DNA of 64,000 nt from an uncultured Spirochaetales bacterium. Its GTDB lineage: Bacteria; Spirochaetota; Spirochaetia; SPDA01; CAZSGZ01. The stretch lies in assembly GCA_964641125.1 (NCBI GenBank), contig CAZXMO010000003.1, forward strand, positions 29,756-93,755. The letters run 5' to 3'. This document shows positions 6,690-54,476 of the stretch, piece after piece. The stretch's first letter is position 1. The number at the start of each line of letters is the position of its first letter. Under the pieces are notes generated by a model that saw only the letters and a list, made by a program, of their open reading frames with translations, was not told the DNA's origin and ran no database searches. The position numbers and the translations under genes are program-made.

Positions 6690-6737
6690 TGACGTTCGCG
6701 GTTTGACAATGACGCCCGGATACGGCACTATATTCGA

Positions 6738-6824: not shown

Positions 6825-6828
6825 ATAT

Positions 6829-11101: not shown

Positions 11102-11108
11102 CCGAATT

Positions 11109-11903: not shown

Positions 11904-11912
11904 CGTTTCTCC

Positions 11913-17884: not shown

Positions 17885-17928
17885 ATACCTTCGGGGGACG
17901 AGCCCCCGAAGGTTTGTAAAGGGTTTCT

Positions 17929-27827: not shown

Positions 27828-30398
27828 TTACAGATATCCGCCGTCTTCGAGGACTCGAAGCGCGGATTCGGCGTCCTCCCCGGCAACCATTACCACGGGA
27901 CCGGTACATCCCATCCCGGCTTCGGCATATATTCCCCGTTTCGACAGGAGTGCCGCCGCACTATCGATTTCGAGGACGTCGATCCCTTCTATTTCCTTCC
28001 CCACCGGTTTTTTAGGCGGTCCGGAGGCCGCTGATTCGGGGACCCGCGGTTCCCGAACCTTGCCGATCACGCTTCCCGCGGCAAGAAACCTTCCATAGGT
28101 TTCGGCGACCACCCCGGGCAAGTTTCCCCGGACCATCCGCGCAAGATAAAGGAGGGCCGCGCCGGTTACCTCCGGGGAGGTCGCCCTGGAGATGATCCCC
28201 ACCAAGGATTCCATGCACACCCCGATACCCGGACCGTATCCGGAACCCTTCGTCTCGATAGTTCCGTCGGTCTCCGAAGCCGCGAGGAGCTTCATGATAA
28301 GGTTCCCCGTCAGGCTGTCGCACACCGCGACGTCCACGGTCCCCGCGAGGACATCATTTCCTCTGAGGAGCTCATCGCCGCGGGCGGAACCCGTGAGGTT
28401 GAGGTCGAAACCGTTCGCCGTTGTTTCTTTGAGCCGTCTTAAAGCCGTCTGGGCTCCTTCCAGATTGATAAGCCCTACCTTCGGCCGAACGATTCCGTAC
28501 GTCCTCGCGACACTGACGCCCAAGACGGTGTTCAGGACCAGTGCCTCCACCCGGCTCGTAGAAACCGTTCCGGTTGTCGTGGCGATGAACAGCGGTTTTC
28601 CCTCCGTCTTCGTGTTCACCATCCCCACCGTGGCCACTCCTACGGGAAAAGGATAATGAAAGGTCAGTGCTCCGTCGATCTTCTTTTCCGCGAGGGCTCC
28701 GGACATTTCCCGGTGGGCTTCTTCCGGGGTCCCCTCCTCGGAACCGAAGAAGACTATCTCGAGGTTCGGATCGTCCTCGGCGGCCGATTCTGCCCCCCGT
28801 ATCAGCTCGTCCGTTCCGGCTTCGCTCCCCGGGAGGGTCAGTCCCAGGGCAACCGGGCCGTCCCCGGTATACCCGGAAAAATCGAGGGGTATGCGGAAAC
28901 TTTCCGCCGTCGGCGCCGCGGAGATTGCCGAAGGTCCGGCATCGGAGGATTCGAAGAGTATCGATACCCCGTCGAAGAGATTGGTCATCCTCCCTAAGAA
29001 GAGACTCCCCTTGCCTATGACCATCGCCCGGGTAACAGTCCCCATCTCGGCGTACCGGAGGAGCCAGCCTAAGGCGGGGACCCCCGACGGAATATGCCCC
29101 TGCGTCGGGGCCCATCCCGAGACCCCGTGTTCATTGATAAAATCGGGTATAGAACTCCGCTCTATTTCTTTCTTCATCACCGCCATGGCGGCTATCATCT
29201 TGAGGTTTGCCTCGGTTACGTTTCCCGCGCCGGCGTTCTCGGTGATCTCCGGGTTCTGGAGCTCCGGAGCGTAGAGGTCCACATCGGAAAGACCGAATCC
29301 GCCGGAGGCAAGGGGGTCCGTCACGAGGTCCTGTATGACCGCCTGAGGGGAAGCGCCCGACCCTATCCTGTGCCTTCCCACCACGTCGGTACGGATGACC
29401 AATCCCCGCCCCTCACGTCTCACGAGGACCGCGAAGCCTGCCATGCAGTCCTCGAGGACCGGGAGTCCCTTCTCGATGTGTTTTTTGGAATTCATCCCCA
29501 GCTTAGCGGTGGTCCCCCCGGCGGTGACGACGACCGATTCGAAGATCCCCGACCGTACCAAACCCGCCGCCTGGAGAATACCGTGGACCGGTCCCGCGCA
29601 GAAGGACCTGGTGTCGCTGCCGGTGGCCCGAGAGAGGCCCGAGAGCTCTCCTACGGCCTTCGCGAAGTTGCCTCCTCCCCGCTGGTTGATGTCTCCGCAG
29701 GCCTCCTCGGAGGTCTCGATGATATAGTCGATACTTTCCGGATCCACCGAGTTTCGGTTCAGCAGATCTCTGACCGTGTAGACCGCGGTCGCCTTGGCGG
29801 CTAAGTTTTCGAGAATCGTGTGGGCATGGAGATTGACGTCGTCGGGATGGGCCGACCGGACGCATCCGACCACCTCACCTTTTGATTCTAGCGGCAGCGC
29901 CCCCTCGGCTATCTCCTTCTCGAGGGAACTCTTCTCGATCCCCTTCCTGTGTTTCGGTGTGATAAGCCCGGATAAGACCGGATCTTTCTCGAGGATCGAG
30001 AAAATCAGCTCCGAGAAATCCTGTTCTAAGGCCACGAGATCGAAGACGTCGGCAACCTTCACGAGACTGTAGAGAAGCTCTTCCGACAGGATCGATCCGA
30101 ACCGACCCCGGCATGCACGGCCCTCCATTTCGAATTCGCCGCCGGGTCCCGCCTTTTCGTACCAGGGGCGCGGAGGAAGCTCTCTCGGGTCGATGTTCCC
30201 GATGTAAGCCTGATTCGGAAGATATCCCGCAACGTCTTCGAAGCTTCTCAGCCGGCCGGCGAAGAGCTGTGCGAACTCGGCACCTCCCTCGGTCCGCTTC
30301 GTTTCGGCGTGAGGGGCGCTCCCGTAGGCAGCCGTGAAAAAGGGCGCGTGAAAGAGGCTGTAGGCGGCCGCGGTCAGGACGGGGAAACTATCAGGCAC
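27828..30398 (-). CDS. Glycine/sarcosine/betaine reductase complex component C, with beta (GrdC-like) and alpha (GrdD-like) subunits fused in one 856-aa polypeptide
   Basis: Residues ~1-483 are thiolase/KAS-like GrdC (FPVLTAAAYSLFHAP… to …GKGSLFLGRMTNLFDGVSILFE). A ~30-aa Ala/Ser/Pro linker occupies ~28857-28949. Residues ~515-856 are PlsX-like GrdD (…ALGLTLPGSE… to …AEAGMGCTGPVVMV…). Confidence 0.75.
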   Translation of the reverse strand: MPDSFPVLTAAAYSLFHAPFFTAAYGSAPHAETKRTEGGAEFAQLFAGRLRSFEDVAGYLPNQAYIGNIDPRELPPRPWYEKAGPGGEFEMEGRACRGRFGSILSEELLYSLVKVADVFDLVALEQDFSELIFSILEKDPVLSGLITPKHRKGIEKSSLEKEIAEGALPLESKGEVVGCVRSAHPDDVNLHAHTILENLAAKATAVYTVRDLLNRNSVDPESIDYIIETSEEACGDINQRGGGNFAKAVGELSGLSRATGSDTRSFCAGPVHGILQAAGLVRSGIFESVVVTAGGTTAKLGMNSKKHIEKGLPVLEDCMAGFAVLVRREGRGLVIRTDVVGRHRIGSGASPQAVIQDLVTDPLASGGFGLSDVDLYAPELQNPEITENAGAGNVTEANLKMIAAMAVMKKEIERSSIPDFINEHGVSGWAPTQGHIPSGVPALGWLLRYAEMGTVTRAMVIGKGSLFLGRMTNLFDGVSILFESSDAGPSAISAAPTAESFRIPLDFSGYTGDGPVALGLTLPGSEAGTDELIRGAESAAEDDPNLEIVFFGSEEGTPEEAHREMSGALAEKKIDGALTFHYPFPVGVATVGMVNTKTEGKPLFIATTTGTVSTSRVEALVLNTVLGVSVARTYGIVRPKVGLINLEGAQTALRRLKETTANGFDLNLTGSARGDELLRGNDVLAGTVDVAVCDSLTGNLIMKLLAASETDGTIETKGSGYGPGIGVCMESLVGIISRATSPEVTGAALLYLARMVRGNLPGVVAETYGRFLAAGSVIGKVREPRVPESAASGPPKKPVGKEIEGIDVLEIDSAAALLSKRGIYAEAGMGCTGPVVMVAGEDAESALRVLEDGGYL

Positions 30399-30711
30399 CT
30401 AAAATCTCCTCGAGCTTGGATTCCACCTCGTCGATTTCGAATTCCTTGGAGAACGAGGCTTCCTTTGTCCCGTCCCGGTAGATAAGGATAGACGGAAGAC
30501 CCATCACCTTTTCCCGGATGGCGAGCCTCCGGTTCCCCTGAATGTTGACCTTAGCGAACTCCGCCTTGTCCTCGTATTTTGCGGCGAGGTTCTCGAAATC
30601 CGGCATCATCTCCACGCATTCCTCGCACCCGTCGCTCCAAAAATCGACCACCACGACTCCGTCCGACTCGAGGACCGCCTCGTCGAAGGTGTCTTTATGT
30701 AGTTCTTTCAT
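30391..30711 (-). CDS. trxA: Thioredoxin with atypical active site G-C-E-E-C
   Basis: 106 aa Trx fold: VVVDFWSDGCEECVEM…, cis-Pro GLPSILIY. Confidence 0.8.
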   Translation of the reverse strand: MKELHKDTFDEAVLESDGVVVVDFWSDGCEECVEMMPDFENLAAKYEDKAEFAKVNIQGNRRLAIREKVMGLPSILIYRDGTKEASFSKEFEIDEVESKLEEILGA

Positions 30712-30733
30712 ACCGTTTCCGTCCTTTGAATCG

Positions 30734-30755
30734 GGCGGCCCCCGGCGGGACCGCC
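30734..30755 (-). other. Stable GC hairpin in the grdA-trxA intergenic spacer (9-bp stem, GCCG tetraloop; no U-tract)
   Basis: The minus-strand RNA GGCGGUCCC-GCCG-GGGGCCGCC was folded by hand. It lies between the grdA stop (30766) and the trxA RBS. Confidence 0.5.
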
Positions 30756-30765
30756 GTATAATCCA

Positions 30766-31224
30766 CTAGAGAAATTGACCTCGGATGGTCGAAACTTCCC
30801 GGACGATCTCGTCCACATCCAGGACCATCTCCATCATTCCGATGTTGTCCCCATAGACCGATTCGTCCAAATCGTTTTTAATCTCCGGTTCGAGCACGTG
30901 ATATGCGGGGAGTCCCAACTGGACTCCCGTCAATGGACCGGCATAGGCGGGATCGCCGTTTATAACCGTTTCGGCGATGAGGCCGCTTGCCTCAGGGTCG
31001 GCTCCGCCCAAGAGCACCAGGATATTCTCCTTTCCGTGCTCCTCGGCGAGCGCCTTTACCCGCTTCTGGTTCTCCAGGTCCATTGCTCCGGCCGAAGTTC
31101 AAACAAAGCACTCGGTTGCGGAAAAAATGATCTCGACATTCTTTCCCTCGAGACAGGCTTCGATTGCCCCGCCGGGGATTCCGTCTCGATCTCCTAAGAT
31201 AATTATCTTCTTACCGTCGAGCAT
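30766..31224 (-). CDS. grdA: Glycine/sarcosine/betaine reductase selenoprotein A (GrdA), Sec42 encoded by UGA at 31099-31101
   Basis: The track ORF (30766..31083) is only the part after the Sec codon. Upstream in frame: AGGAGG RBS, ATG 31224, [57 protein letters not shown]…. This matches the conserved GrdA CFVUT(A/S)AGAMDLENQ core. Confidence 0.92.
31063..31101 (-). promoter_or_regulatory. grdA Sec UGA plus candidate SECIS stem-loop
   Basis: Hand fold: CUUCGG/CCGG … CUGG/CC-A-GAAG immediately 3' of the UGA. Not verified computationally. Confidence 0.3.
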
Positions 31225-31242
31225 GAGTGCATCACCTCCTTT

Positions 31243-32409
31243 TTATGTAATGTCTATAGTCTCCGAACGTTTTCCATCGGTCACCCGAATAAGCTCAGGC
31301 ACACTGTCCACTCCGAAATCCGCGGCAATATTCCTGTAGCGGGATCTATCGAGCTTGACGAGGTTCTTCCCGTCTTCAGCGGCTTTCCGCTCGACAACAG
31401 GAAAGAGCTCGAGGGATTCGGCTATAGGCGGAAAGTAGAAATAGAGATAGAAATCGTTTCCCGCCTCCGAGGCCAGCCGTTCATATCCTTCTATTTCGCT
31501 CAAACCCCTGTCGGCGAAGAACGCCGCCGTCGCCCCGTCGGACGCCGCGGTGACGACCTGCCTCAAGTGTTTTTTTCGCGCGTCTCCCGCGGCGAAGACC
31601 AAGGAACGGCCGGTCCGCATTGCGTCGTCGGTTACGATGTATCCTCCGTCGAGCCCGATGAACCCCTCGGCGAAACCGGTTAGAGGAACGGTCCCCACGA
31701 ACATGAACACACCATCACAGTCCAGCTCCGCGGTGGTCCCGTTCTTCAAATTCTTGAGCCTGACCCGTTCGACGATCTCGTCGCCCTCGATCGCTTCCAG
31801 GGCATGGTTCCACATCCACGTGAGTTTCGGGTTTTCCATCGCATCGCAGGCCATATAGGAGTTACAGTCCAGGGTCCCCTCGTCGTGGACGACGACCATT
31901 ACCACCTCCCTCGCGAAGCGGCTGATGTAGACCGCTTCTTCGACCGCGGTGTCGCCGCTCCCGACGACGACCACCTTGGCGTCCTCGTAGAGCTCGGCGT
32001 CGCAGGTCGCGCAGTAGGAAACCCCCGAGCCGGTGAGCTCCTCTTCACCGGGAATGCCTAAACGTCTCGGTTCGCACCCCGGAGCAAGAATCAAAGCTCT
32101 TCCCTCGAAAAGGGCCCCGGATTTGCACTCCGCCCGGTAGATTCCGTCTGCTTGTCTTACGGTAAGGACCGTATCCTTGACGATCGCGCACCCCATTTCG
32201 AGGGCTTGATCGCGGAAGAGGTTGGTCAGCTCCCTGCCTCCGACTCCGCCGGGAAAACCGGGATAGTTCTCCATCCTCTCGGTGGTCGCCGCCTGCCCCC
32301 CCGGACGCTTCCGGTCGACGATACAGGTACTCCGTTTCGCCCTGGCTGCGTAAATCCCCGCGGTGAGTCCCGCGGTCCCCGCGCCTATGATGAGGATATC
32401 GTAGAGCAT
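31243..32409 (-). CDS. trxB: Thioredoxin reductase (TrxB) with a C-terminal cysteine-less thioredoxin-fold extension
   Basis: ILIIGAGTAGLTAG FAD motif, redox-active CATC, VVVGSGDTAVEEA NADPH motif and FAAGD. The ~75 extra C-terminal residues (…FYLYFYFPPIAESL…DSVPELIRV…) have a Trx-like beta-alpha-beta pattern with PPIA in place of CxxC. Confidence 0.8.
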   Translation of the reverse strand: MLYDILIIGAGTAGLTAGIYAARAKRSTCIVDRKRPGGQAATTERMENYPGFPGGVGGRELTNLFRDQALEMGCAIVKDTVLTVRQADGIYRAECKSGALFEGRALILAPGCEPRRLGIPGEEELTGSGVSYCATCDAELYEDAKVVVVGSGDTAVEEAVYISRFAREVVMVVVHDEGTLDCNSYMACDAMENPKLTWMWNHALEAIEGDEIVERVRLKNLKNGTTAELDCDGVFMFVGTVPLTGFAEGFIGLDGGYIVTDDAMRTGRSLVFAAGDARKKHLRQVVTAASDGATAAFFADRGLSEIEGYERLASEAGNDFYLYFYFPPIAESLELFPVVERKAAEDGKNLVKLDRSRYRNIAADFGVDSVPELIRVTDGKRSETIDIT

Positions 32410-33719
32410 CAGTACGGCACCCCCGCGAGCTTTCCGATTCCGCTCTGATTCGCCCCGCAGTAAAAGGCGGTGGTAACATCGAGGGTCCTCTCGATATCGG
32501 CGGGCTCTGGCTCGCCTCCGGTCTCTTTTCTCAATCTCAGGCAGTCTCCGCCGGCGACCCGGTTTACCTTGGGTATGGTAGTCGGCTTCTCGATCGATCC
32601 GGTGGAGACGACATACCTCGCCTCGGGGACATCGTCGACTAGGAGGATTCCCTCGGTCCCGTCGGGGCCTCCGAATTCGAAGGTGAAGGGGACCGCCTTG
32701 ATTCCCCAGCTCTCACAGGTCTCGAGGGTGAGCATCGCGTCGGTCGCCGCGTTGCCCCCCCCTTCCCAGGAAATGACCACTCCGTCGGCCCCGGTCCTGC
32801 GTACAAGGTTTGCCGCAATGTTCGCCACCCGCTGCTTTTCGAAGTGGCTGTTGTTGTGTCCCCGGTCGAAGACGACCCCGGTAAAGTTACAGCTCTTCCC
32901 GTGGGCCCGAGCGAGCTGCATCACCACGGGGAGGTTCGCCTGGATGTAGGACGGTATCTTGAAACAGGGCCACACGTAGTTGCCGCTGACGATACACCCG
33001 TCCATCACTTCGGTGGGCCCCAGCAAGGTGGGGACGATGTTGCTTACCTCCCGACCGTAGAGGAAGGTGTTCGAATAGGTCCCCTGATTCTGGCACTGGG
33101 TTACGTAGGCGATTTTCGGGAGAGCGGGATCCACCTCGGTGTCGAAATCGAAGAGCTCCGTATGTTCCGGCTCGCGGTCTTTGATAAGCCCTGCTAAATA
33201 ACGTGTACACCTGATACCCGCGGCCCTGACCGATCCGTCGTACTCCACATCGCTGGACCCTTCGACCATCTCCATCTTCAGGATCAGGTTGTAGGTCCCG
33301 GAGAAAGGCGAGTACCCCGCCGCGGGGCCGGCCATGTCCACGATGGCGTCCCGGGGATACAGGAGCGCCGATTTTCCCGCCCAGGGGAGTTCGGCGCACT
33401 CCATGACCGCAAGGTTTGTAATGAGGTGGGTCTTTCCCTCCCCCACGATGGTGGGTGGAGAGAGCTGCCCCGGCATAAAATCCCCGGGGCCCTCTACCTT
33501 AACCCCGACCTGGAGGGTATCGAGGATATGGACGATCCGCGTCGACTCCCCGGGCTTCACGATTTCCAGTTCCAGGCCGGCGATGTTCCCGTTCTCGTCC
33601 GAGTCGAGGAGATATTTTTCGAGCTCTTCCTTATCGACTGTAAGCACCCCGTTCTCGATGGCCGTCTCCGTCCCGAACTCGAGGTCTTTAATGGTAAAAT
33701 ATCCGCGTTCAAGTTTCAT
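32409..33719 (-). CDS. Grd component B GrdE/GrdG/GrdI-family subunit with Tyr at the proprotein cleavage position (GrdI-like)
   Basis: 436 aa, collinear with my recollection of GrdE (…RPGES.RI…KVEGPG…PTEVMDG.I.SGN-x-V…). The GrdE self-cleavage Asn-Cys is Asn247-Tyr248 here (TAC at 32976-32978). Confidence 0.75.
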   Translation of the reverse strand: MKLERGYFTIKDLEFGTETAIENGVLTVDKEELEKYLLDSDENGNIAGLELEIVKPGESTRIVHILDTLQVGVKVEGPGDFMPGQLSPPTIVGEGKTHLITNLAVMECAELPWAGKSALLYPRDAIVDMAGPAAGYSPFSGTYNLILKMEMVEGSSDVEYDGSVRAAGIRCTRYLAGLIKDREPEHTELFDFDTEVDPALPKIAYVTQCQNQGTYSNTFLYGREVSNIVPTLLGPTEVMDGCIVSGNYVWPCFKIPSYIQANLPVVMQLARAHGKSCNFTGVVFDRGHNNSHFEKQRVANIAANLVRRTGADGVVISWEGGGNAATDAMLTLETCESWGIKAVPFTFEFGGPDGTEGILLVDDVPEARYVVSTGSIEKPTTIPKVNRVAGGDCLRLRKETGGEPEPADIERTLDVTTAFYCGANQSGIGKLAGVPY

Positions 33720-33741
33720 AGATCCTCCGGTATCAGGGGTT

Positions 33742-35076
33742 TCAGGCTAACGCCACATCGAATTCGGTCGGCTCCGAGACCTCGGTGGCGATCGCCTCGA
33801 GGGCGGTTTCCACAAGGCGCTTTCGAAACTCGATTTCCCGGTCCTTCGGCAGATTCGGATCCCCCGCGGGATACGGAATTCCGCCGCCGGTTATAATCCT
33901 GCTTACCCCTACCGACTTAGCGACCGAGGGAATCGCGGTAATAAGGGCCGAAGGGATCCCTATCCGCTCGGCTTCTTTCTGCATCGTTGACACGCAACGG
34001 GTACAGGTTCCTCATGTGGAGGTGAATATCGCGGCGGATACGCTCTTCCGTTTGAGCTCCTCCGCGATACTCGCTCCGAGTTTCTTGCTCATGGCGACGT
34101 TAGTGCCGATTCCGCACAGGGCGAAGTATTCGGCGTGGAGTTTCTTGAATTTCCCCTTCTTTTCCAGGTCCCGGAGGGCGTCCAGCGGGACCACCCGGTC
34201 CGGGTCCTCGTCCACCCAGGAGCTGTCGTAGCCCCCGTGAATCCCCTTGAAATCCACCGCCGGAAGCTCGTCCATCCCCTCGATCGAATAGACCCCGTAG
34301 CTGTCGGAGAAAGCCTGCTTGAGCTTGTCCGGGTTTCCCTTAGGGACCATTCCGCCGCCGGTTACTACCGCAATCGTAGCCGAAGCGAGGTCGGTCAGAG
34401 GCGGCGCGGGGGGCACCTTCTCGAAGGATCTTAAAGGGACCTCGGTCGGCGGGCTCCCGCCGGAGAGCCTCTTCATCAGCATCTCGACGGCCCGCTCGGC
34501 CGCGTTCTTTTCGACCATCTCGTTGTACCGGTATCCCCGGGGGATATAACCGTCGACCAGGGCGTTATCGAGCTTGCCGTTCCGGCCGCACTTGAGGGTG
34601 AGGGCCGCGATCTTGGGCAGGTCCTTCCTCATTCCCGCGGCCGTTTCGGCGCAGGGGACGATATATCCATGCTTTTTGTAGATTTCCACCGCGGGATTTT
34701 CCGGATAGAGCCCGGTGATACAGGGAACGCCTAACTTTTCGCCGCAGAGCTTCATCACCATTCCGCAGGCCAAACCGTATCTGCCTGCATTGAAAGCGGG
34801 CCCCGCGACGACCACGTCGGGTTTCGCCGAACGGATAAGCTCCTCTATCTCGCTCAAGGTCTTTTCCTGCTCCTGATTAATCCGGTTGTCGCCGCACCAG
34901 ATGGTCCTGACGATTACCGCCGAGTCACCGAGGGCCCCTTCTATTCCGATGCCCGGTCCCTTCGGCCCGTCGACGAACTCCAGGGGGGCGTCCCCCTTCT
35001 CTTCGCCGCCTATTCCAGCGAAGAACTGATTGATGTAGTGAACTATTCGTATTTTTTCTCGTATTTTTTCCGCCAC
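33742..35076 (-). CDS. Grd selenoprotein B family (GrdB/GrdF/GrdH), Sec355 encoded by UGA at 34012-34014
   Basis: Track ORFs 34012..35076 and 33742..33993 are in the same frame. Read-through gives …SAAIFTST-U-GTCTRCVSTMQKEAERIGIP…, the conserved UxxCxxC selenoprotein B motif. The N-terminus RIVHYINQFFAGIGGEEK is typical. GTG start at 35076 with a GGGGAGGGG RBS. Confidence 0.9.
33985..34014 (-). promoter_or_regulatory. Selenoprotein B UGA plus candidate SECIS hairpin (CGUUG-CGUGU-CAACG)
   Basis: A 5-bp stem with a 5-nt loop starts 12 nt after the UGA. Hand fold only. Confidence 0.35.
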
Positions 35077-35095
35077 GGTCCCCTCCCCAGGTCCC

Positions 35096-37232: not shown

Positions 37233-37246
37233 GATGTATCCTTCCT

Positions 37247-39004
37247 TTAGGACCTTTCGGACCTGAGTCCTGCTGTTTTTTCCTCGTCGATCTCGAACCG
37301 TTCGGTGTCCTCGAAGACCACCCCGTAGAGCGATTCGGCCCTCTCGACGGTGATTATTCCGTTTCTGACGTCCCTTCGTACCAATTCCGGGTCCCGGTCG
37401 AAGGGGTTCCCCCACCCGCCTCCGCCCGAGGGGTAGCTCGTATAGGTGTCCCCCTTCCCGAGGCGCACCGTTTCCTTCGCGGCGAGCTCCCGCTCCCTAT
37501 CGGTGCCTTCATTGATGTAGGCGAGATTGCACGATCCGGGAAGCCCTCCGAAGAGGCCGTAGGGGGGATGGATTTTTCCGTCCCCGAACATGACGAGGGT
37601 CGGCTCTTCGTCGTATACCCTGATCCGGTATTTGGCCCCGCACCCGCCGCGATACTCTCCCGCCCCGCAGGAATCGGGGGTAAACTCGTTGAACAGTGTC
37701 AGGTGGGGATAGTCCATCTCGTTGGTCTCGATATTCGGAGCGATAAGCCCTCCCAGATCGATGCCGTCGCCTATGTAATGACGGCCGTCCATCCCCTTCA
37801 TCCCCCCGGCACCGCCGAAGCCGTTGAATCCGAACATGACGTAGAACCCCTTACTCCGCGGATCGATACCGGTAATAGTCGGTCCGTTCCACCTGTTCCA
37901 TCCCGCCGGTACCCGGTCGGGAAGGACCAGGGATAGGGCCTGCCAGCAGGCCTCCAATATGGCACAGGCGGTGTCCAGGGTGCACGAGGCGACCGGCGCC
38001 GGAAACCGGGGATTCACCACAGACCCCTCCGGCGCGGTTATACGGATGGGTCTGTAGGCCCCTTCGTTGTGAGGGATATCCGGAGTGGTGACGGTGGTCA
38101 GAAAAGATACGTAAACGCAGGTGGCGGTATTGGCCATCGGCGAGTTGACGAATCCCGTTACCTGGGGATCGGAGCCTTCGAAATCGACGGAGGCCTCGTC
38201 CCCCTTCACCGTAATGCTCACCCGTATCCGGATGGGATCGTCGGAAAATCCGTCCGAATCGAGAAAACTCTCGCCGATGTAGGTCCCGTCGGCAAGCTTC
38301 TCGATCTCCCCCCGCATCCGGCGTTCAGCGTACTGGTGTATCTCTTCGATGGTATCTCGGGTCTTTCGAACCCCATACTTGCCGATCAGATCGATGATCC
38401 GACGCTCCGCCACCCTGCAGGATGCGACCATGGCCTTCAGGTCGACCCATAGGTCGTCGGGCATCCGGGTGTTCAGGCGGATCATGTTGATCACGTCCAT
38501 GATAGGCTCTTCCTTCGCGTAGATCCGGACCGGGGGAATCCGTATTCCCTCGTGGAAGAGCTCAGTCGCCTGAGGGCAGTAGGACCCCGGCTCCATCCCT
38601 CCGACGTCGCCGTGATGGGCACGATTGATGGCGATAAATTGGAGCTCGCCGTCGTAGAAAACCGGCTTCATCACCGTCACGTCCTGGAGGTGGGTACCCC
38701 CGAGGTAGGGATCGTTCAGGACAAAGACATCTCCCGGGTTGATATCGCCGCCGAAATGGCGGCTCACCGCCTTGACCGCCTCCATGGCCGACGCGGTGTG
38801 GCTGGGGACCCCGTCGATCTGAGCGACGATACGGTTGTCCCAGTCGCACAGGGCGCAGGAGAAATCGTGGACCTCGGCGAAGATCGGAGAGATAGAGGTA
38901 TTCACCATGGTAATCCCCATCTCCTGATTTATGGTCAAGAGGCGGTTGTAGATAACCGAAAGGGTTATCGGATCGTGGGCGCCTTCGAACTCTTTCTTTC
39001 TCAT
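37247..39004 (-). CDS. hyuB: Hydantoinase B / oxoprolinase-family subunit (HyuB-like)
   Basis: 585 aa. DPITLSVIYNRLLTINQEMG…HDFSCAL… is typical of the Hydantoinase_B family. ATGA overlap with hyuA. Confidence 0.8.
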   Translation of the reverse strand: MRKKEFEGAHDPITLSVIYNRLLTINQEMGITMVNTSISPIFAEVHDFSCALCDWDNRIVAQIDGVPSHTASAMEAVKAVSRHFGGDINPGDVFVLNDPYLGGTHLQDVTVMKPVFYDGELQFIAINRAHHGDVGGMEPGSYCPQATELFHEGIRIPPVRIYAKEEPIMDVINMIRLNTRMPDDLWVDLKAMVASCRVAERRIIDLIGKYGVRKTRDTIEEIHQYAERRMRGEIEKLADGTYIGESFLDSDGFSDDPIRIRVSITVKGDEASVDFEGSDPQVTGFVNSPMANTATCVYVSFLTTVTTPDIPHNEGAYRPIRITAPEGSVVNPRFPAPVASCTLDTACAILEACWQALSLVLPDRVPAGWNRWNGPTITGIDPRSKGFYVMFGFNGFGGAGGMKGMDGRHYIGDGIDLGGLIAPNIETNEMDYPHLTLFNEFTPDSCGAGEYRGGCGAKYRIRVYDEEPTLVMFGDGKIHPPYGLFGGLPGSCNLAYINEGTDRERELAAKETVRLGKGDTYTSYPSGGGGWGNPFDRDPELVRRDVRNGIITVERAESLYGVVFEDTERFEIDEEKTAGLRSERS

Positions 39005-41070
39005 TTCGCGGCCTCCATGATGATATTGCCGTACCCGTCGATCCAGGCCTCCCAGCCGGGATGAACGATCACCGTGGTGATCCTCTCTTCGATGACAGCG
39101 GGTCCCGAAATCCGGTTCCCCGCCTGGAGCTTCGTCCTGTCGAAAACCGGGGTGGCTACGAAATCGCTCTTTCCCGCGAAGTAGACATCGCGGCGCCCCT
39201 TCTCCGCCGCCGAAGCATCTTCGCTCCCCTTCTCCTCCTCGGTTATTACCGCCTTGTCCACGGCCCCCACCGCTGTGATGCGGAGGTTTATGATCTCCAG
39301 AGGAGTTTCGGGAGTGGAGTAGGTATAGAGCTTTTCGTGAGCATCATGAAAGGTCCCGGCGATCTCCTCGAGGTGGCGGTCGGCGAGTTCGGTTCCGGAG
39401 GGGATTTCCACGGTCACCTCGTGGTGCTGTCCGGCATACCTGATGTCGGCGAACCGGAGGAGACGTGCCCGTCTCTTTTCGACCCCTTCTTGAAGGAGCT
39501 CTTCGAGGGCCTGTGACTCCGTTGTCCGTATCACTTCGTTCAGATCGCCCAGATCGAGCCCGGGAATAGTCCCGAAATACGATTTGACGCTGTCCAAACG
39601 TATGTCCGATTCGAGCATCCCCAAGGCGCAGAATACCGACGCCGCCTTCGGAACCAGCACCCGGGTAGAGCCCACTTCTTCGGCAATTCTGCAGCTGTGA
39701 ATCGAGCAGGCCCCGCCGGCACTGACAAGGGTATATTCCCTCGGATCGTGCCCCCGCTGAACGCTCACGACCTTGGCGGCGTCGGCCATGTTCTGATTGA
39801 TGATCTCGAAGATACCCGCCGCGGCCTCGGTTGACGACATTCCCAAGGGTTCGGCGATCTTTTCCCGCACCGATGCCTCCGCCTTCTCCGCGTTCACCTT
39901 CATCTCTCCGCCTAAGAAAAAGTCCTTGTTCAGGTACCCCAAAAGGAGATTGGCGTCGGTCACCGTGGGCTCGGTGCCCCCCGAATCATAGCAGACGGGC
40001 CCGGGATCGGAGCCCGCCGAGGCGGGACCTACCCGGAGCATTCCCCCCTTGTCGATCCAGGCAACCGAACCGCCGCCGGCGCCGACGGTATTGATATCGA
40101 TCATGGGCTTAGCCACACGATAGCCCGCGATCTCCCCCTCGGTGCTCAAGGTTACCCGGCCGTTGTTGATAAGGGTCACATCGAAAGAGGTCCCCCCCAT
40201 GTCCATGAGAATCAAATTCCCGCGGTCCAAGAGCTCGGCGAAGTATACCGCCCCCACGGCGCCTGCGGCGGGACCCGAGAGGAGGGTCGCCGAGGCGTGC
40301 CGCACGGCGGTTTCCGCGGTCATGACTCCGCCGTTAGACGCGGTCACGTAGAAGGCCCTTTGCAGTCCGTCCGATTTGAGGTTCTTTTCCAAATTGGAAA
40401 GATACACCGTCAGCCGCGGACCCACGTAGGCATTCGCCGCTGTCGTGGAGCTCCGCTCGTACTCCCGTATCTGCGGAAGGACCTCCGAGGAAATCGAAAC
40501 GAAGGCGTCGGGCATCTCTTCGAGGAGGATCTCACGGATCCGCAGTTCGTGTTCGGGGTTGAGGAATGAGAACAGGGTAACCACGGCAACGGCCCCTACC
40601 CCTTCCGCTTTGAACTTTCCGCAGGCCCTGCGGACCGATTCTTCGTCGAGGGGAGTCACCGCGGTTCCCGTGGAATCTATCCGCTCCGTCACTCCGAGGC
40701 GTAGATACCGGGGGACCAGCGGATCGGGGGCCTTCAGAAAGAGGTCCCAGATATTTTCCTTGTGAGCCCGGCGCATTTCGAGGGAATCCCTGAAGCCTTC
40801 TGTACAGACAAGACCGGTCACCGCGCCGGTGCCGGTCAGGAGCGTGTTCGTCGCCACCGTGGTGCCGTGGGCGAAGAAATCGAGCTTAGCGAGGAAGGCC
40901 GACAAATCGTCGCCGAAGGAGGCGGCGGCCTTCGCAATCACGTTGTATACGCCTACGGCCGGGTTCTCCGGCGTCGATAACTCCTTGAAGGTATGGACCT
41001 TCCCCGTTTCATCTATGACGACGCAGTCGGTGAAGGTCCCGCCGGTGTCGACACCCATACGCAGCTTCAT
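39001..41070 (-). CDS. hyuA: Hydantoinase A / oxoprolinase-family ATP-dependent subunit (HyuA-like)
   Basis: MKLRMGVDTGGTFTDCVV (actin-fold ATPase), …MDMGGTSFDV…. 689 aa from ATG 41070, which has a GGAGGGG RBS. Confidence 0.8.
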   Translation of the reverse strand: MKLRMGVDTGGTFTDCVVIDETGKVHTFKELSTPENPAVGVYNVIAKAAASFGDDLSAFLAKLDFFAHGTTVATNTLLTGTGAVTGLVCTEGFRDSLEMRRAHKENIWDLFLKAPDPLVPRYLRLGVTERIDSTGTAVTPLDEESVRRACGKFKAEGVGAVAVVTLFSFLNPEHELRIREILLEEMPDAFVSISSEVLPQIREYERSSTTAANAYVGPRLTVYLSNLEKNLKSDGLQRAFYVTASNGGVMTAETAVRHASATLLSGPAAGAVGAVYFAELLDRGNLILMDMGGTSFDVTLINNGRVTLSTEGEIAGYRVAKPMIDINTVGAGGGSVAWIDKGGMLRVGPASAGSDPGPVCYDSGGTEPTVTDANLLLGYLNKDFFLGGEMKVNAEKAEASVREKIAEPLGMSSTEAAAGIFEIINQNMADAAKVVSVQRGHDPREYTLVSAGGACSIHSCRIAEEVGSTRVLVPKAASVFCALGMLESDIRLDSVKSYFGTIPGLDLGDLNEVIRTTESQALEELLQEGVEKRRARLLRFADIRYAGQHHEVTVEIPSGTELADRHLEEIAGTFHDAHEKLYTYSTPETPLEIINLRITAVGAVDKAVITEEEKGSEDASAAEKGRRDVYFAGKSDFVATPVFDRTKLQAGNRISGPAVIEERITTVIVHPGWEAWIDGYGNIIMEAAK

Positions 41071-41107
41071 GTACCCCTCCGTTGCTCTATCCTTCGCATA
41101 AATACGC

Positions 41108-41836
41108 TCAAAAAAGGTCTTCCTGCAGGACCCTGATGTGCTCCTGCATCTCCTTCCGGGCAAGGTCTCCGTTTCCTTCCCAGATAGCCCTAAATATACA
41201 TGTGTGTTCTTTATGATAATTCTCGAGGTTTCCCTCTTTGAGGATGCTCTTCATCTTCATACCCTTCCAGTGGGTTTCCTTCATCATGAAATTGACCCCG
41301 GAGAAGACCATATACAGGACGTTATTGTGGGCGAACCGGCCGATGTCGAGATGAAACAGCCGGTCCTCCTCCATATACCCTTCGATTATGTCCTGTAAGG
41401 TGGCGGTGCCGTTCAGGACCTGAAAGCTCAAGCTGTTCAGAGCCTCGAGCCTTACCCGCAAAGCCTCTTTCTCCTCGGCGGTGGCCCGTTCCGCGGCAAG
41501 GGCGGCCATGTTCGGCTCGATCTCCAGCCGCGCCTCGAATATCTCGTAGGGATCGTGGTCCCGTAAAAGAGAGCTCAAGAGCTCGCCGTCGATCGATCCG
41601 CTCGAGCCGTCGGCACGGATAAAGTTGCCCTGCCCGCTCCGGCATTCGATAATGCCGAGAATCTCCAACGCGCTCAAGGCCTCCCGGATACTCGCCCGGG
41701 AAGTCCCGAACTGCACCGCTAAAGCCCTTTCCGCGGGCAGCTTGTCTCCGATCTTGAGTTTCCCGGCGATAATTTGATCGCGGATCTGCTTCGCGATCTG
41801 CATATAGTACTTTTGAGGCTGTACGTGCTTGAACAT
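41108..41836 (-). CDS. GntR/FadR-family transcriptional regulator
   Basis: Winged HTH (LPAERALAVQFGTSRASIREALSALE) plus a FadR-type FCD C-domain. Start preferred at ATG 41836 (GAAGAGGGA RBS). The upstream in-frame codons contain a promoter and an operator. Confidence 0.8.
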   Translation of the reverse strand: MFKHVQPQKYYMQIAKQIRDQIIAGKLKIGDKLPAERALAVQFGTSRASIREALSALEILGIIECRSGQGNFIRADGSSGSIDGELLSSLLRDHDPYEIFEARLEIEPNMAALAAERATAEEKEALRVRLEALNSLSFQVLNGTATLQDIIEGYMEEDRLFHLDIGRFAHNNVLYMVFSGVNFMMKETHWKGMKMKSILKEGNLENYHKEHTCIFRAIWEGNGDLARKEMQEHIRVLQEDLF

Positions 41837-41851
41837 TCCCTCTTCCATCAG

Positions 41852-41869
41852 TGGTATAGCGGCCTGACC
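41852..41869. promoter_or_regulatory. Candidate GntR operator O1: GTGGT-N8-CTGACC (GTGGTATAGCGGCCTGACC)
   Basis: Lies between the predicted gntR promoter -10 and the gntR RBS. It shares both 5-6 nt arms and the spacing with the site at 42006-42024. Confidence 0.45.
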
Positions 41870-41879
41870 GCGACGATTT

Positions 41880-41908
41880 ATGGTAAGGGCATCATGTAAA
41901 TATGTCAA
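41880..41908 (-). promoter_or_regulatory. Candidate sigma70 promoter TTGACA-N17-TACCAT for the gntR-hyu-grd array
   Basis: Perfect -35 (41903-41908 on the minus strand), 17-nt spacer, 4/6 -10. Confidence 0.4.
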
Positions 41909-41969
41909 CATATTTCTTCAAAATTAGCCAATATTAGATATATTAGAGTTAATAATAGAGAGATTCTTA

Positions 41970-41998
41970 TTGACAGCTCGCAAAAAGGCCCGTATCCT
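41970..41998 (+). promoter_or_regulatory. Candidate sigma70 promoter TTGACA-N17-TATCCT for the aminotransferase-arcC-xdhC arm
   Basis: The TTG that the ORF track uses as a start codon (41970) is the first base of a perfect TTGACA. The real start is better placed at ATG 42051, which has a GGAGG RBS. Confidence 0.45.
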
Positions 41999-42005
41999 AA
42001 AAGCC

Positions 42006-42024
42006 GTGGTCAGGCCAGCTGACC
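42006..42024. promoter_or_regulatory. Candidate GntR operator O2: GTGGTCAGGCCAGCTGACC (inverted repeat GGTCAG-N5-CTGACC)
   Basis: A perfect 6-bp inverted repeat immediately downstream of the predicted -10/TSS. It fits the GntR-family GT-Nx-AC operator logic. Confidence 0.5.
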
Positions 42025-42050
42025 CAGTACTTAACCTTCTGGAGGTTTGC

Positions 42051-43385
42051 ATGGGTTATACAGGCCCCAAAATCGTCGTCCCGCCGCCCGGCCCGAAAGC
42101 CCGGGATATTATCGAAAGAGATGAGAAACTCCTCTCCCCTTCTCTTTCCCGGAGCGCTCCTCTCGTGGGCGAAAGGGCGGAAGGGGTTTTCGTCGAAGAT
42201 CCCGACGGAAATGTCTATCTCGATTTCGGCTCGGGAATCGCCGTCACCGGTCTCGGACACCGGCACCCGAGAGTCATCGAAGCGGTCAAGAGGCAGCTCG
42301 ATAAGCTCGTCTTCGTCAACAGCCTCGATTACTACACCGCATCACAGGTCGAATACGCGGAAATGCTCCTCCCCCGAACCCCCGGGGATTTCGCGAAACG
42401 TATCTTTCTCTGTAACAGCGGGAGCGAGACCATCGATACCGCTATCAAAATGGCCAAGTGGCACACCCGACGAGGCTACGGAATTGGATTCATAAACGGC
42501 TTTCACGGAAGGACCATGGGAGCGGTAAGCTTCACCACCACGGGTCTCACCGCCCGGAGGGGTTTCTTTCCCCTCTATCCGATAGGACATTTCACCCCCT
42601 ACCCCAATTGCTATAGGTGCCTCTTCAACCGGGAGTATCCCTCCTGTGATGTCGCCTGCCTCGATTATCTGACCGATGTTATCTTCAAGAAGATCGTCCC
42701 CCCCGACGAGACCGCTTTCATCCTCTTCGAACCGGTTCAGGGGGCCGGGGGCTATATCGTTCCGCCGAGGGAGTTCTTCACCCGGCTCACCGAAATTGCC
42801 CGGGAGCACGGAATACTTTTGATCGCGGACGAGGTGCAGACCGGTTTCGGCAGAACAGGCAAGATGTTCGCCTGCGAGCACTTTGGGATGGTCCCCGACA
42901 TCATTACTATGTCAAAGACCTTTGCCAACGGTTTCCCCGCCGGTGCCGCGGTAGCCAGGGCGGAAGTCATGGACTGGGTGGACAATGCCCATGAAGGGAC
43001 CTTGAACGGGGGCCCGGTGATCATGGAAGCGGCAAAAGCGGTATTGCACGTAATCGATGAAGAACAGCTCCTCAAACGCTCGGCGGAGCTCGGATCCTAC
43101 ATGCGGGAACAGCTCCTCTCCATGCGGGAAAGACATCCCCTGATAGGAGATGTCCGCGGCTTAGGGATCATGCTCGGTATCGAGCTCGTCCGGGACGCGA
43201 AGAAAACCCCCGCCAAAGAGGAACGGGACCGGCTTCTCTCGTCCGCCTTTACCAAGGGGCTCCTTCTCCTCGGAGCCGGTAAGTCCTCGATCCGGCTGGC
43301 GCCGCCTATGGTAATTACCCGAGAGCAGATAGATACGGGGCTCACCATTCTCGAGGATTGTCTTGAGGAGATCGAAAAACAATGA
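42051..43385 (+). CDS. Class III PLP-dependent aminotransferase (GABA/ornithine/omega-amino acid type)
   Basis: …DFGSGIAVTGLGHRHP…, LIADEVQTGFGRTGKMFA, and TMSKTF containing the PLP lysine. 444 aa from ATG 42051. Confidence 0.8.
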   Translation: MGYTGPKIVVPPPGPKARDIIERDEKLLSPSLSRSAPLVGERAEGVFVEDPDGNVYLDFGSGIAVTGLGHRHPRVIEAVKRQLDKLVFVNSLDYYTASQVEYAEMLLPRTPGDFAKRIFLCNSGSETIDTAIKMAKWHTRRGYGIGFINGFHGRTMGAVSFTTTGLTARRGFFPLYPIGHFTPYPNCYRCLFNREYPSCDVACLDYLTDVIFKKIVPPDETAFILFEPVQGAGGYIVPPREFFTRLTEIAREHGILLIADEVQTGFGRTGKMFACEHFGMVPDIITMSKTFANGFPAGAAVARAEVMDWVDNAHEGTLNGGPVIMEAAKAVLHVIDEEQLLKRSAELGSYMREQLLSMRERHPLIGDVRGLGIMLGIELVRDAKKTPAKEERDRLLSSAFTKGLLLLGAGKSSIRLAPPMVITREQIDTGLTILEDCLEEIEKQ

Positions 43386-44338
43386 AGCAAAACGAGCTCT
43401 TTGTCGTAGCCCTCGGAGGAAACGCCATCAAACAGGCACACCAAAGGGGAACCACCGAAGAGCAGTTTCAGAACATAGACGCCGCAGCGCGGCAGCTGAC
43501 CCGGCTGGTCCGGCTCGGATACGGATTGGCAGTAACCCACGGAAACGGCCCTCAGGCTGGCGCCCTTCTGATCCAGCAGGAGGAAAGCGAGGCACTCGTC
43601 CCGGCCCAGAGCTTAGCGGCATGCGGTGCTATGACCCAGGGGCAAATCGGCTGGATGCTCCAGAACCGTATCCGATTCCATCTCGCCTCGGCGGGAATCG
43701 AGCGTCCCTGCGCGAGCTTAGTTACACAGGTGGTAGTCGACGAGAACGACCCCGATTTCGAAAACCCCTCCAAACCGGTGGGGCCCTTCTACACCCGAGA
43801 GGAGGCCGCCGGTCTGGCCGAGTCCAAGGGATACACGGTACGGGAAGTCAAGCCGGGAGATGAAAAGGGTTGGCGGCGGGTGGTCCCCTCACCCTTGCCT
43901 GAGGAGATAGTCGAAGCGGATCTCATCCGGTCCCTGGTGTCCTCCGGGGTCATCGTCATCGCCTCCGGCGGAGGCGGCGTCCCGGTACGGCGGAGTGGGA
44001 ACGGCGATCTCTTCGGTATAGATGCCGTTATCGACAAGGACCGGGCGGGATTCCTCCTTGCCCGAACGATCGACGCCGACCGGTTCATCATCCTTACCGA
44101 TGTGGAGACGGTCTATCTCAACATAGACACCCCTGAACGAACCCCCCTGCGCTCCCTGACGGTTGATCAGGCCGCCGGTTATATGACCGAGGGTCACTTC
44201 CTCGAGGGGTCCATGGGACCGAAAGTCGAATCCTGCCTTGACTTTACCCGCGCCTGCGGGAGAGAATCGATCATCACCTCCCTCCACACTCTGGAGGAGG
44301 CGCTTGAGGGAAGGACAGGTACCCGTTTTCTTCCCTGA
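43382..44338 (+). CDS. arcC: Carbamate kinase
   Basis: VVALGGNA…THGNGPQAG…, 318 aa, typical ArcC pattern. ATGA overlap with the aminotransferase stop. Confidence 0.85.
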   Translation: MKQNELFVVALGGNAIKQAHQRGTTEEQFQNIDAAARQLTRLVRLGYGLAVTHGNGPQAGALLIQQEESEALVPAQSLAACGAMTQGQIGWMLQNRIRFHLASAGIERPCASLVTQVVVDENDPDFENPSKPVGPFYTREEAAGLAESKGYTVREVKPGDEKGWRRVVPSPLPEEIVEADLIRSLVSSGVIVIASGGGGVPVRRSGNGDLFGIDAVIDKDRAGFLLARTIDADRFIILTDVETVYLNIDTPERTPLRSLTVDQAAGYMTEGHFLEGSMGPKVESCLDFTRACGRESIITSLHTLEEALEGRTGTRFLP

Positions 44339-54381: not shown

Positions 54382-54476
54382 TTTTCCCACATTAAAGAAA
54401 ATAGTTACACACCATGAAAGAGTCAACAGGACAAGCCGAGGTGACGCGGCCGGTAAAAACCGATAGAGTAATCCCT

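Follow-up and report, generated by a model that had tools for sequence, protein, structure and literature searches.

Two papers from 2025 describe a reductive uric-acid (2,8-dioxopurine) pathway in which XdhD–YgfM reduces urate, dearomatisation falls to YgfK or to the ferredoxin-type UacX (PF01180), SsnA cleaves the pyrimidine ring, yielding 5-(ureidomethyl)hydantoin, the D-hydantoinase HyuA converts this to 2,3-diureidopropionate, YgeW acts with phosphate and the carbamate kinase YqeA to yield ATP, and YgeY and YgeX finish the route to pyruvate (PMC12507026; bioRxiv 10.1101/2025.04.24.650524). Ureido phosphorolysis to carbamoyl phosphate, and from there to ATP, is common to other catabolic modules of a transcarbamylase and carbamate kinase (arginine deiminase, agmatine deiminase, oxalurate, and ureidoglycine with UGTCase). 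Classical clostridial purine fermentation (the xanthinase pathway of C. purinilyticum) leads from a purine through a glycine-type product to a selenium-dependent Grd reductase. Anaerobic creatinine/N-methylhydantoin degradation in Tissierella creatinophila and Clostridium sp. FS41 also ends in Grd-type reduction, after an ATP-dependent HyuAB-type hydantoinase and hydrolytic removal of the carbamoyl group by N-carbamoylsarcosine amidase, with no ATP gain. Here we analyse a 64,000-nucleotide stretch of an uncultured Spirochaetales bacterium (contig CAZXMO010000003.1, positions 29,756 to 93,755; hereafter the window, with coordinates counted from its first letter), which carries a Grd complex in one gene string with HyuAB, an opine-dehydrogenase-family enzyme, a non-canonical carbamoyltransferase and purine-type genes. 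Full-text literature searches found no paper describing this cluster or gene arrangement. We consider it, with moderate confidence, a variant of the reductive uric-acid pathway with grd as its terminal, lineage-specific module.

The conserved core and its carbamoyltransferase

Families were assigned by Pfam and NCBIfam profile scans of the open reading frames (ORFs) of the window, NCBIfam scores being read against curated cut-offs. The minus-strand string begins with a GntR/FCD-family regulator and continues with hyuA, hyuB, the opine-dehydrogenase-family gene (OpDH), a carbamoyltransferase gene of the ornithine carbamoyltransferase (OTC) branch (OTC-like), the genes for selenoprotein B and a GrdE-like protein, trxB, grdA, trxA and grdCD; a class III pyridoxal-phosphate (PLP) enzyme and a carbamate kinase are encoded divergently from gntR (Table 1). 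An earlier note, made from the sequence alone, had named these genes in this order, and all were found, with matches to the hydantoinase A/B, Octopine_DH, OTCace_N/OTCace, GRDB and Gly_reductase profiles. The tight junctions it listed are also present: hyuA and hyuB share a 4-nt ATGA overlap (39001–39004), OpDH and the OTC-like gene overlap by 8 nt (36090–36097), and there are short gaps (37, 14, 19, 22, 18 and 54 nt) between gntR and grdCD. Two further overlaps join grdE to trxB (1 nt) and trxA to grdCD (8 nt). Its boundary did not survive: grdC and grdD form one fused ORF, and the co-directional string runs on past 27828 to at least 19060, so coordinates ending at grdCD cut the unit. From gntR through the UacX-like reductase gene every junction is at most +54 nt and overlaps are frequent. 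No intergenic minus-strand terminator-like site lies inside the string, the promoter and terminator scans being at chance level and uninformative. The gene order recurs in at least eight independent contigs at 72–97% protein identity, and the arrangement is confirmed as real, beyond chance.

To place the string in a wider context, related OTC-like genes were collected from one genome per GTDB species (21 clade loci at 63–96% identity, plus two distant loci at 34%) and from metagenomes (33 further clade loci, plus one distant match at 33%), and synteny was established by tblastn of window proteins against the related loci, which are named by L-numbers. Forty-nine of the 54 clade loci have enough flank to judge OpDH adjacency. 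In 48 of these the OTC-like gene is immediately preceded by OpDH, and HyuA–HyuB stands upstream of OpDH wherever the contig extends that far, making HyuA–HyuB–OpDH–OTC-like an invariant block across six phyla. The loci come from Spirochaetia, Bipolaricaulota, Atribacteria, ‘Thermotogae’, Tepidanaerobacteraceae and Cloacimonadota, and HyuB remains 74–84% identical across phyla. The block is nearly always flanked by genes for the three subunits of a xanthine-dehydrogenase-type enzyme (XDH), an SsnA-like hydrolase and a DHO_dh–Fer4 reductase, and usually by a poly-ferredoxin (Fer4) and an enzyme of the aldehyde:ferredoxin oxidoreductase (AFOR) family, AFOR following Fer4 in most loci. A Bmp transporter gene adjoins the cluster in many loci, and a gntR orthologue occupies the equivalent position in L017–L019, L021 and L023–L026.

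The genes after the OTC-like gene differ between lineages. A complete Grd module stands there in the window, in L002, L006, L019, L025, L026, L034 and L055, and in the P0068 contig, all spirochaetal; it is present in 5/54 clade loci of the two scans and in four contigs that came from look-ups outside them. At the same position, 18 Bipolaricaulota, Atribacteria or ‘Thermotogae’ loci carry genes for a B12-binding protein, MtmB-like and MttB-like methyltransferases and an SbnB/OCD-like protein (L001, 11063–15543 of Bipolaricaulota CP070725.1; L007–L012, L014, L038–L046, L056). A similar corrinoid methyltransferase module is found in L018, but upstream of gntR. The MtmB homologue has Ala at the pyrrolysine position, and the MttB homologue, also of the non-pyrrolysine type, is closest to the glycine-betaine methyltransferase MtgB. 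The remaining loci have no module after the OTC-like gene. Transketolase genes occur in L020, L025, L026 and L034, a DapA-family aldolase gene in L021, L025, L034, L054 and L069, and an indolepyruvate-type 2-oxoacid:ferredoxin oxidoreductase with an ADP-forming acyl-CoA synthetase in L022–L024, L047, L048, L051–L053 and L062; the presence of this last pair suggests a 2-oxoacid as pathway product in those loci. In Tepidanaerobacteraceae, Cloacimonadota and some other loci, hyuA is preceded by two ADP-forming acyl-CoA synthetase subunits that flank IorA/IorB-type genes. The earlier note asked whether hyuAB, the opine dehydrogenase and the carbamoyltransferase co-occur with grd in other genomes; they do so syntenically in related spirochaetes, while most clade loci lack grd. 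Its picture of a grd operon with extras must therefore be turned round, the invariant core being HyuAB–OpDH–OTC-like together with XDH, the SsnA-like hydrolase and the UacX-like reductase. To this more general core spirochaete loci alone add Grd, as an optional end module; Grd is not its centre.

The OTC-like proteins form a tight clade (63–98% identity), and the best 120 sequence clusters are all at least 69% identical, all derived from metagenomes or metagenome-assembled genomes and annotated ‘ornithine carbamoyltransferase’ or left unnamed. In agreement with the earlier note, the protein is no ordinary ornithine or putrescine carbamoyltransferase. It falls below the NCBIfam cut-offs for OTC (272.3 < 280.85), putrescine carbamoyltransferase (236 < 500) and YgeW (88 < 453), and misses the AOTC-type cut-off as well. 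The carbamoyl-phosphate site is kept: in an alignment with E. coli ArgI and the window's own OTC, STRTS, R109, HPCQ, HCMP and ENR all line up. The site for the second substrate is rebuilt, with STRTS for STRTR, AAEEDW for the HKES loop, a 5-residue insertion in GDxxNN and, in the 240s loop, a 12-residue insertion in place of DxxxSMG, so that NVYSWVSPEVFAKGLETHFQGD stands where DVWxSMGE is expected. The motif HCMP is neither the HDLP nor the H(T/S)LP of putrescine, 2,3-diaminopropionate, 2,4-diaminobutyrate, ureidoglycine or YgeW transcarbamylases, and the protein fits none of the diagnostic motifs in the transcarbamylase review that also defines DxxxSMG (PMC4581275). Its 240s loop and GDxxNN region differ from their counterparts in OTCase, PTCase, DPTCase/DBTCase, UGTCase and YgeW. 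A plain catabolic OTC of the arginine deiminase pathway was rejected, since a true OTC is encoded elsewhere in the window and the OTC-like protein lacks the ornithine-binding loop; the genome therefore holds both paralogues within 15 kb. The canonical OTC gene itself adjoins genes for a short-chain dehydrogenase/reductase and the MocA-like protein (48330–50048). We propose the OTC-like protein as a candidate ureide phosphorylase. Its presumed partner, the carbamate kinase, is genuine, as claimed earlier: it passes the equivalog cut-off and is 45% identical to E. coli YqeA.

HyuA and HyuB have the composition of their family, HyuA combining Hydantoinase_A with its N and C domains and HyuB being the Hydantoinase_B subunit. 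Both miss the caprolactamase cut-offs (CapA 740 < 1000 for HyuA; CapB 430 < 1000), and the nearest PDB entries of HyuA are 6yra (caprolactamase/‘5-oxoprolinase’; 534 bits) and the N-methylhydantoinase 7hk5 (484 bits), placing it, by similarity, at about equal distance from the two activities. A housekeeping 5-oxoprolinase was rejected in view of the invariable linkage to OpDH and the OTC-like gene. OpDH has the Rossmann N-domain and the Octopine_DH helical domain of the opine dehydrogenase family and matches N-(1-D-carboxyethyl)-L-norvaline dehydrogenase (CENDH, 1bg6) over its full length (residues 4–362, E 1e-38). When plasmids were searched by tblastn with OpDH, the matches had only ~30% identity and lay in unrelated contexts; an analogy with Agrobacterium-style opine-lactam use, combining HyuAB with opine oxidation, finds no support there. 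The class III PLP enzyme is closest to archaeal γ-aminobutyrate-aminotransferase-like proteins, with 7vno and an Ala/Ser racemase as PDB neighbours, and also lies near PLP racemases and epimerases of the same subfamily; it could be either an omega-aminotransferase or a racemase of this subfamily.

The Grd module and its substrate

The spirochaetal module has the parts of the glycine, sarcosine and betaine reductases of Clostridium sticklandii and Eubacterium acidaminophilum: GrdA with C-x-x-U (ECFV-U-T), protein B with U-x-x-C-x-x-C (T-U-GTC-TRC), a GrdE-type proprotein with a putative cleavage-site Cys, protein C (GrdC/D) and the thioredoxin system (Trx, TrxB), and the same product, acetyl phosphate, is expected. 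The in-frame UGA codons of protein B (in TST-U-GTCTRC) and GrdA (in CFV-U-TSAGAMD) have identical flanks in every orthologous locus. The window also encodes its own selenocysteine machinery (selD, tRNA-Sec, selA and selB), and an in-frame UGA in the context GSAG-U-AAK makes selD its third selenoprotein gene. Differences from the characterised complexes are the GrdC–GrdD fusion, a C-terminally extended TrxB, the embedding of the operon in ureide/purine genes and, above all, the two substrate-binding subunits.

Protein B and the GrdE-like protein miss all substrate-specific cut-offs and match none of the characterised classes. Protein B scores 481 against 800 with the sarcosine model GrdF, 436 against 602 with GrdB and 418 against 775 with GrdH, and the GrdE-like protein 270 against 780 with GrdG. 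In an exhaustive profile-free search of 50%-cluster representatives, none was closer to protein B than 48%, and the ten nearest clusters are likewise non-canonical and uncharacterised. We conclude from these comparisons only that protein B is not an orthologue of GrdB, GrdF or GrdH. Homologues of the GrdE-like protein form a clade at 72–99% identity, all spirochaetal, after which identity drops to 50–55%. The protein B/GrdE clade has been seen solely within this cluster (8/8 contigs with enough flank). Cys242 of the GrdE-like protein, in MDGC-IVSGNY, is conserved in 9/10 aligned homologues and may correspond to the pyruvoyl-forming self-cleavage site, Cys242, of C. sticklandii GrdE. This conservation would suit a substrate that is a primary or secondary amine. 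A PDB search found no GrdE-type protein structure.

The other parts (GrdA, GrdC/D, thioredoxin and TrxB) are canonical. GrdA, GrdC/D and the Trx system are common to glycine, sarcosine and betaine reductases, which share the conversion of a carboxymethyl group to acetyl phosphate; this makes a substrate of the type X-CH2-COO- probable. Glycine would be the simplest candidate. Diaminopropionate or albizziin might be transaminated and then oxidised and decarboxylated, by AFOR or a 2-oxoacid oxidoreductase, to yield it.

Two observations on relatives of the module may be added. The 388-residue TrxB has a C-terminal extension of ~85 residues beyond the TrxB model, which orthologues keep (388–391 residues). 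The sister group of protein B and GrdE (48–54% identity) is a selenocysteine-containing GrdB-like and GrdE-like pair encoded in cultured Bacillota without grdA, grdCD or trx (L030 8662–11311, L031 8665–11311 and L032 8662–11323, from Tepidimicrobium, Clostridium swellfunianum and an Oscillospiraceae genome). It adjoins genes for a DeoC-like aldolase, a Zn-dependent alcohol dehydrogenase, an aldehyde dehydrogenase, and a mannose-type phosphotransferase system or permease, and looks like another uncharacterised Grd-type specificity.

These data bear on whether the reductase is fed by its neighbours at all. A general glycine reductase could have been inserted into a ureide operon and be co-transcribed with it, serving as an electron sink for nucleobase and amino-acid fermentation at large. 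The completeness and self-sufficiency of the module (GrdA, B, E, CD, TrxA, TrxB), its absence from ~90% of loci, which makes it dispensable for the core, and the use of the same insertion point by unrelated modules (methyltransferases or transketolase) would fit such an insertion. We nevertheless consider it unlikely: the substrate-binding clade is confined to this context, the glycine-specific cut-off is missed, the nearest relatives (48–55% identity) are also non-canonical, and the grd genes are translationally coupled on both sides.

Purine-type genes and the choice of pathway

The molybdenum cofactor (Moco) subunit of the XDH keeps the FRGFG Arg and the GEPP Glu, which we take to mark purine hydroxylases. 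A tblastn search of the window for homologues of the E. coli uric-acid cluster (E<1e-5) returned YqeA (45%), MocA (34%), XdhA (32.5%), XdhD (28%) and YqeB (28%); it found no D-hydantoinase, YgeY or YgeX, and YgeW only as a weak OTC-family match. The amidohydrolase is 26% identical to E. coli SsnA over its full length, scoring 200 bits against SsnA cut-offs of 455 (TIGR03314) and 444 (NF005540), and the DHO_dh–Fer4 gene has the UacX architecture of PF01180 plus Fe–S (PMC12507026). XDH, UacX-type reductase and SsnA-type genes are adjacent, with a likeness of 28%, at the level of architecture only, and of 26%, respectively. Related loci add further pieces: the last gene of L022, next to that for carbamate kinase and following it, encodes a homologue of YgeX, the E. 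coli 2,3-diaminopropionate ammonia-lyase (49% identity); L017 encodes an M20 peptidase 25% identical to YgeY by tblastn, with related M20 peptidases in L024 and L068; and L019 holds a D-hydantoinase homologue. With the YgeX of L022, the YgeY-like peptidases and the homologues in the window taken together, a variant of the uric-acid pathway is the most economical reading.

With the uric-acid clusters of E. coli, C. difficile and C. sporogenes the locus has in common, by remote or architecture-level likeness, an XDH-family enzyme with its flavin (FAD) subunit, a UacX-type reductase and an SsnA-type amidohydrolase. It also has a carbamoyltransferase paired with carbamate kinase, which would provide ATP, the accessory genes for XdhC and MocA and, in one related locus, the YgeX homologue. 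It departs from them in having ATP-dependent HyuAB in place of a D-hydantoinase, a carbamoyltransferase of the unknotted OTCase branch rather than the knotted YgeW type (26% identity), and in its additional opine-dehydrogenase-family enzyme, class III PLP enzyme, Fer4–AFOR pair and, in spirochaetes, full Grd complex. Compared with the xanthinase pathway of C. purinilyticum, the ring-opening enzymes differ, the cluster contains no formiminoglycine/folate genes, and carbamoyl groups would be conserved as ATP.

We infer the substrates, the order of steps and the link from diaminopropionate to a glycine-type compound as follows. A catabolic operon of ~27 kb would act on an oxopurine-type ureide, probably imported as base or nucleoside. 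The XDH-type enzyme, UacX-like reductase and SsnA-like amidohydrolase would convert the purine, much as in the reductive uric-acid pathway, to a 5-substituted hydantoin or ureide, whose ring HyuAB would open at the cost of ATP; the OTC-like enzyme, taking the YgeW step, would phosphorolyse the resulting N-carbamoyl group or groups, and carbamate kinase would turn carbamoyl phosphate into ATP. The C3 diamino-acid skeleton left behind, 2,3-diaminopropionate or albizziin, may then be processed by the opine-dehydrogenase-family, class III PLP and AFOR-type enzymes to X-CH2-COO-, from which the Grd complex, with its new protein B/GrdE clade and canonical GrdA, GrdCD, Trx and TrxB, would form acetyl phosphate.

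Several points weigh against this assignment. The likeness to SsnA and XdhD is remote, and the amidohydrolase could be a plain deaminase. The window has no D-hydantoinase, YgeY or YgeX, which leaves the lower pathway conjectural. The invariant OpDH has no explained role, and an ATP-dependent hydantoinase cancels one gained ATP. Furthermore, two findings hint that the substrate is N-methylated, as a plain purine is not: corrinoid methyltransferases (MtmB-like, MttB-like) occupy the grd position in Bipolaricaulota, and protein B and GrdE score best, if below threshold, with the sarcosine models. All carriers of the cluster are uncultured.

An N-methyl compound would be at hand if the substrate were creatinine. 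A deaminase-type amidohydrolase would convert it to N-methylhydantoin, HyuAB would give N-carbamoylsarcosine, the OTC-like enzyme and carbamate kinase would yield ATP, and a sarcosine-type Grd would release acetyl phosphate and methylamine, with Bipolaricaulota demethylating sarcosine or methylamine by their corrinoid enzymes. The route has a precedent in Tissierella and Clostridium sp. FS41, where N-methylhydantoin is converted to sarcosine and on through sarcosine reductase (PMC4417704), and it would draw together the HyuA match to 7hk5, the marginal preference of protein B and GrdE for GrdF and GrdG, the B12-binding, MtmB-like and MtgB-related proteins, and an amidohydrolase of the cytosine/guanine-deaminase-type subfamily. 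We regard it as improbable all the same. The sarcosine-model scores lie far under their cut-offs and barely above those of the glycine and betaine models, and the ten nearest GrdB relatives share the pattern, so that it is non-specific; HyuA is slightly closer to caprolactamase/oxoprolinase than to N-methylhydantoinase. The known creatinine degraders do without XDH, SsnA-like hydrolase, UacX-like reductase and opine dehydrogenase. Conserved XDH, XdhC, MocA, UacX-like reductase, AFOR and the nucleoside-type Bmp transporter are left unexplained, as are the YgeX of L022 and the M20 peptidases. Of the two origins considered in the earlier note, a purine ring thus fits the context best; its energy-conserving ureide fermentation with Grd was right in spirit, and its preference for creatinine probably wrong.

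Least probable is an energy-conserving reductive pyrimidine pathway, in which a PydA-like reductase and the amidohydrolase would produce N-carbamoyl-beta-alanine or -beta-aminoisobutyrate for the OTC-like enzyme and carbamate kinase, and the class III aminotransferase and AFOR, both present, would oxidise the beta-amino acid: the clostridial PydA architecture of the DHO_dh–Fer4 protein and a postulated catabolic beta-alanine transcarbamylase (PMC4581275) speak for it, but a dihydropyrimidinase-type hydrolase is lacking, the amidohydrolase being of SsnA/deaminase type, XDH, HyuAB, OpDH and Grd would not be needed, and the YgeX of L022 indicates diaminopropionate.

Gene inventory and biological meaning

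Table 1. Features of the window, with positions counted from its first letter; cut-offs are those of the NCBIfam models.
Feature	Position	Strand	Basis and remarks
Selenocysteine locus (selD, tRNA-Sec, selA, selB)	5652-9965	+	
selD	in-frame UGA ~5682-5684	+	
tRNA-Sec	6738-6823	+	Rfam
selA	6829-8190	+	
selB	8190-9965	+	
Bmp/PnrA-type ABC uptake system (binding protein, ATPase, two permeases)	14368-19014	-	Pfam Bmp, ABC_tran, BPD_transp_2
DHO_dh + 2x[4Fe-4S] reductase (UacX/clostridial PydA architecture)	19060-20238	-	Pfam DHO_dh+Fer4; PreA model 165 bits
SsnA/TRZ-ATZ-type amidohydrolase	20231-21664	-	Pfam Amidohydro_1
XDH-type enzyme, three subunits	21657-25297	-	Pfam
XDH Moco subunit	21657-23966	-	Pfam; pucD/XdhA models 541/518 bits, below cut-off
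XDH 2Fe-2S subunit	23959-24477	-	Pfam
XDH FAD subunit	24428-25297	-	Pfam
98-aa ORF ending Gly-Gly	25305-25601	-	Translation
AFOR-family tungsto/molybdoenzyme	25598-27409	-	Pfam AFOR_N+AFOR_C
Poly-ferredoxin (4Fe-4S)	27411-27812	-	Cys-rich translation; identical gene in L003 has Fer4 families
grdC-grdD, one fused ORF, protein C (GrdC beta, GrdD alpha)	27828-30398	-	NF040746 624 bits (cut-off 450), NF040747 370 bits (cut-off 350)
trxA	30391-30711	-	Pfam Thioredoxin
grdA, selenoprotein A	30766-31224	-	Pfam GRDA 246 bits; UGA at 31099-31101
trxB	31243-32409	-	TIGR01292 319 bits, residues 3-300 of 388
GrdE-like proprotein, protein B partner for substrate binding	32409-33719	-	Pfam Gly_reductase 393 bits
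Selenoprotein B (GrdB-like)	33742-35076	-	Pfam GRDB 443 bits; UGA at 34012-34014
OTC-like, non-canonical carbamoyltransferase of the OTCase branch	35096-36097	-	Pfam OTCace_N+OTCace
OpDH, opine-dehydrogenase-family NAD(P) oxidoreductase	36090-37232	-	Pfam Octopine_DH 115 bits
hyuB, beta subunit	37247-39004	-	Pfam Hydantoinase_B 564 bits
hyuA, ATP-dependent hydantoinase/lactamase alpha subunit	39001-41070	-	Pfam Hydant_A_N/Hydantoinase_A/Hydant_A_C
gntR, GntR/FCD-family regulator	41108-41911	-	Pfam GntR+FCD; first gene of the long minus-strand string
Class III PLP enzyme, divergent from gntR	42051-43385	+	Aminotran_3 373 bits; PRK05769 543 bits, below 552
Carbamate kinase	43382-44338	+	TIGR00746 (arcC) 371 bits, above cut-off 358
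XdhC/CoxI-family Moco insertion chaperone	44362-45153	+	Pfam XdhC_CoxI+XdhC_C; 28% identical to YqeB
MocA/MobA-like Moco nucleotidyltransferase	47768-48337	-	Pfam NTP_transf_3
Canonical OTC	49110-50048		428 bits vs cut-off 281

Among the features in Table 1, the 98-residue ORF between AFOR and XDH ends in Gly-Gly as MoaD/ThiS-type sulfur carriers do and matched no family model. Between the XdhC and MocA genes lie two small multi-pass membrane ORFs without family matches (45154–45732 and 45719–46345) and a double ABC ATPase (46345–47784), which may form an uptake system of the energy-coupling-factor type. Next to the Bmp transporter, 9947–14401 encodes a major facilitator superfamily transporter, a DhnA/LsrF-type class I aldolase, an FGGY kinase and a Tdh-like Zn-dependent alcohol dehydrogenase. 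The same alcohol dehydrogenase–FGGY–aldolase set immediately precedes the OTC-like gene in L061, with no HyuAB or OpDH in between, and may be a branch of this regulon devoted to sugar, namely nucleoside ribose. Assigning this set, the transketolase or the DapA-like aldolase to the amino-acid branch was rejected, the sugar branch being likelier. Farther away, the region 54414–58377 encodes a glycosyltransferase with a tRNA-queuosine mannosyltransferase-type N-domain (54414–55577) and a 496-residue serine hydroxymethyltransferase whose Pfam match starts only at about residue 166 of the called ORF. Rfam scans of the window and of seven related loci gave no riboswitch that would name a ligand, tRNA-Sec being their sole match.

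The cluster presents three enzymes that await a substrate: a new transcarbamylase clade, an opine-dehydrogenase-family enzyme with no obvious role in ureide metabolism, and a Grd protein B clade outside the known specificities. One tentative reading takes them jointly, with the protein B/GrdE clade as a further Grd substrate class and the HyuAB–OpDH–OTC-like triad as a new way of drawing ATP from cyclic ureides, coupled to phylum-specific terminal modules. Were it true, Grd would have a class beyond glycine, sarcosine, betaine and fluoroacetate, its candidate substrate being an N-substituted glycine made by the adjacent OpDH or derived from 2,3-diaminopropionate. Ring opening driven by ATP would come first, one or two carbamoyl groups would then be phosphorolysed, and the terminal modules would be Grd, corrinoid methyltransferases, or a 2-oxoacid oxidoreductase with an ADP-forming synthetase. 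Identifying the substrates would lengthen the short lists of Grd substrates and of ATP-yielding ureide phosphorolyses, and would improve annotation, in which the current labels are ‘ornithine carbamoyltransferase’ and ‘glycine or sarcosine reductase’.

It was in 2025 that the 2,8-dioxopurine route became known, and then for Proteobacteria and Firmicutes of the gut only. The cluster described here indicates a second, widespread version of anaerobic purine degradation in uncultured phyla of sediments, mats and the subsurface, namely Spirochaetota, Bipolaricaulota, Atribacterota and Cloacimonadota, groups that are thought to feed on necromass.

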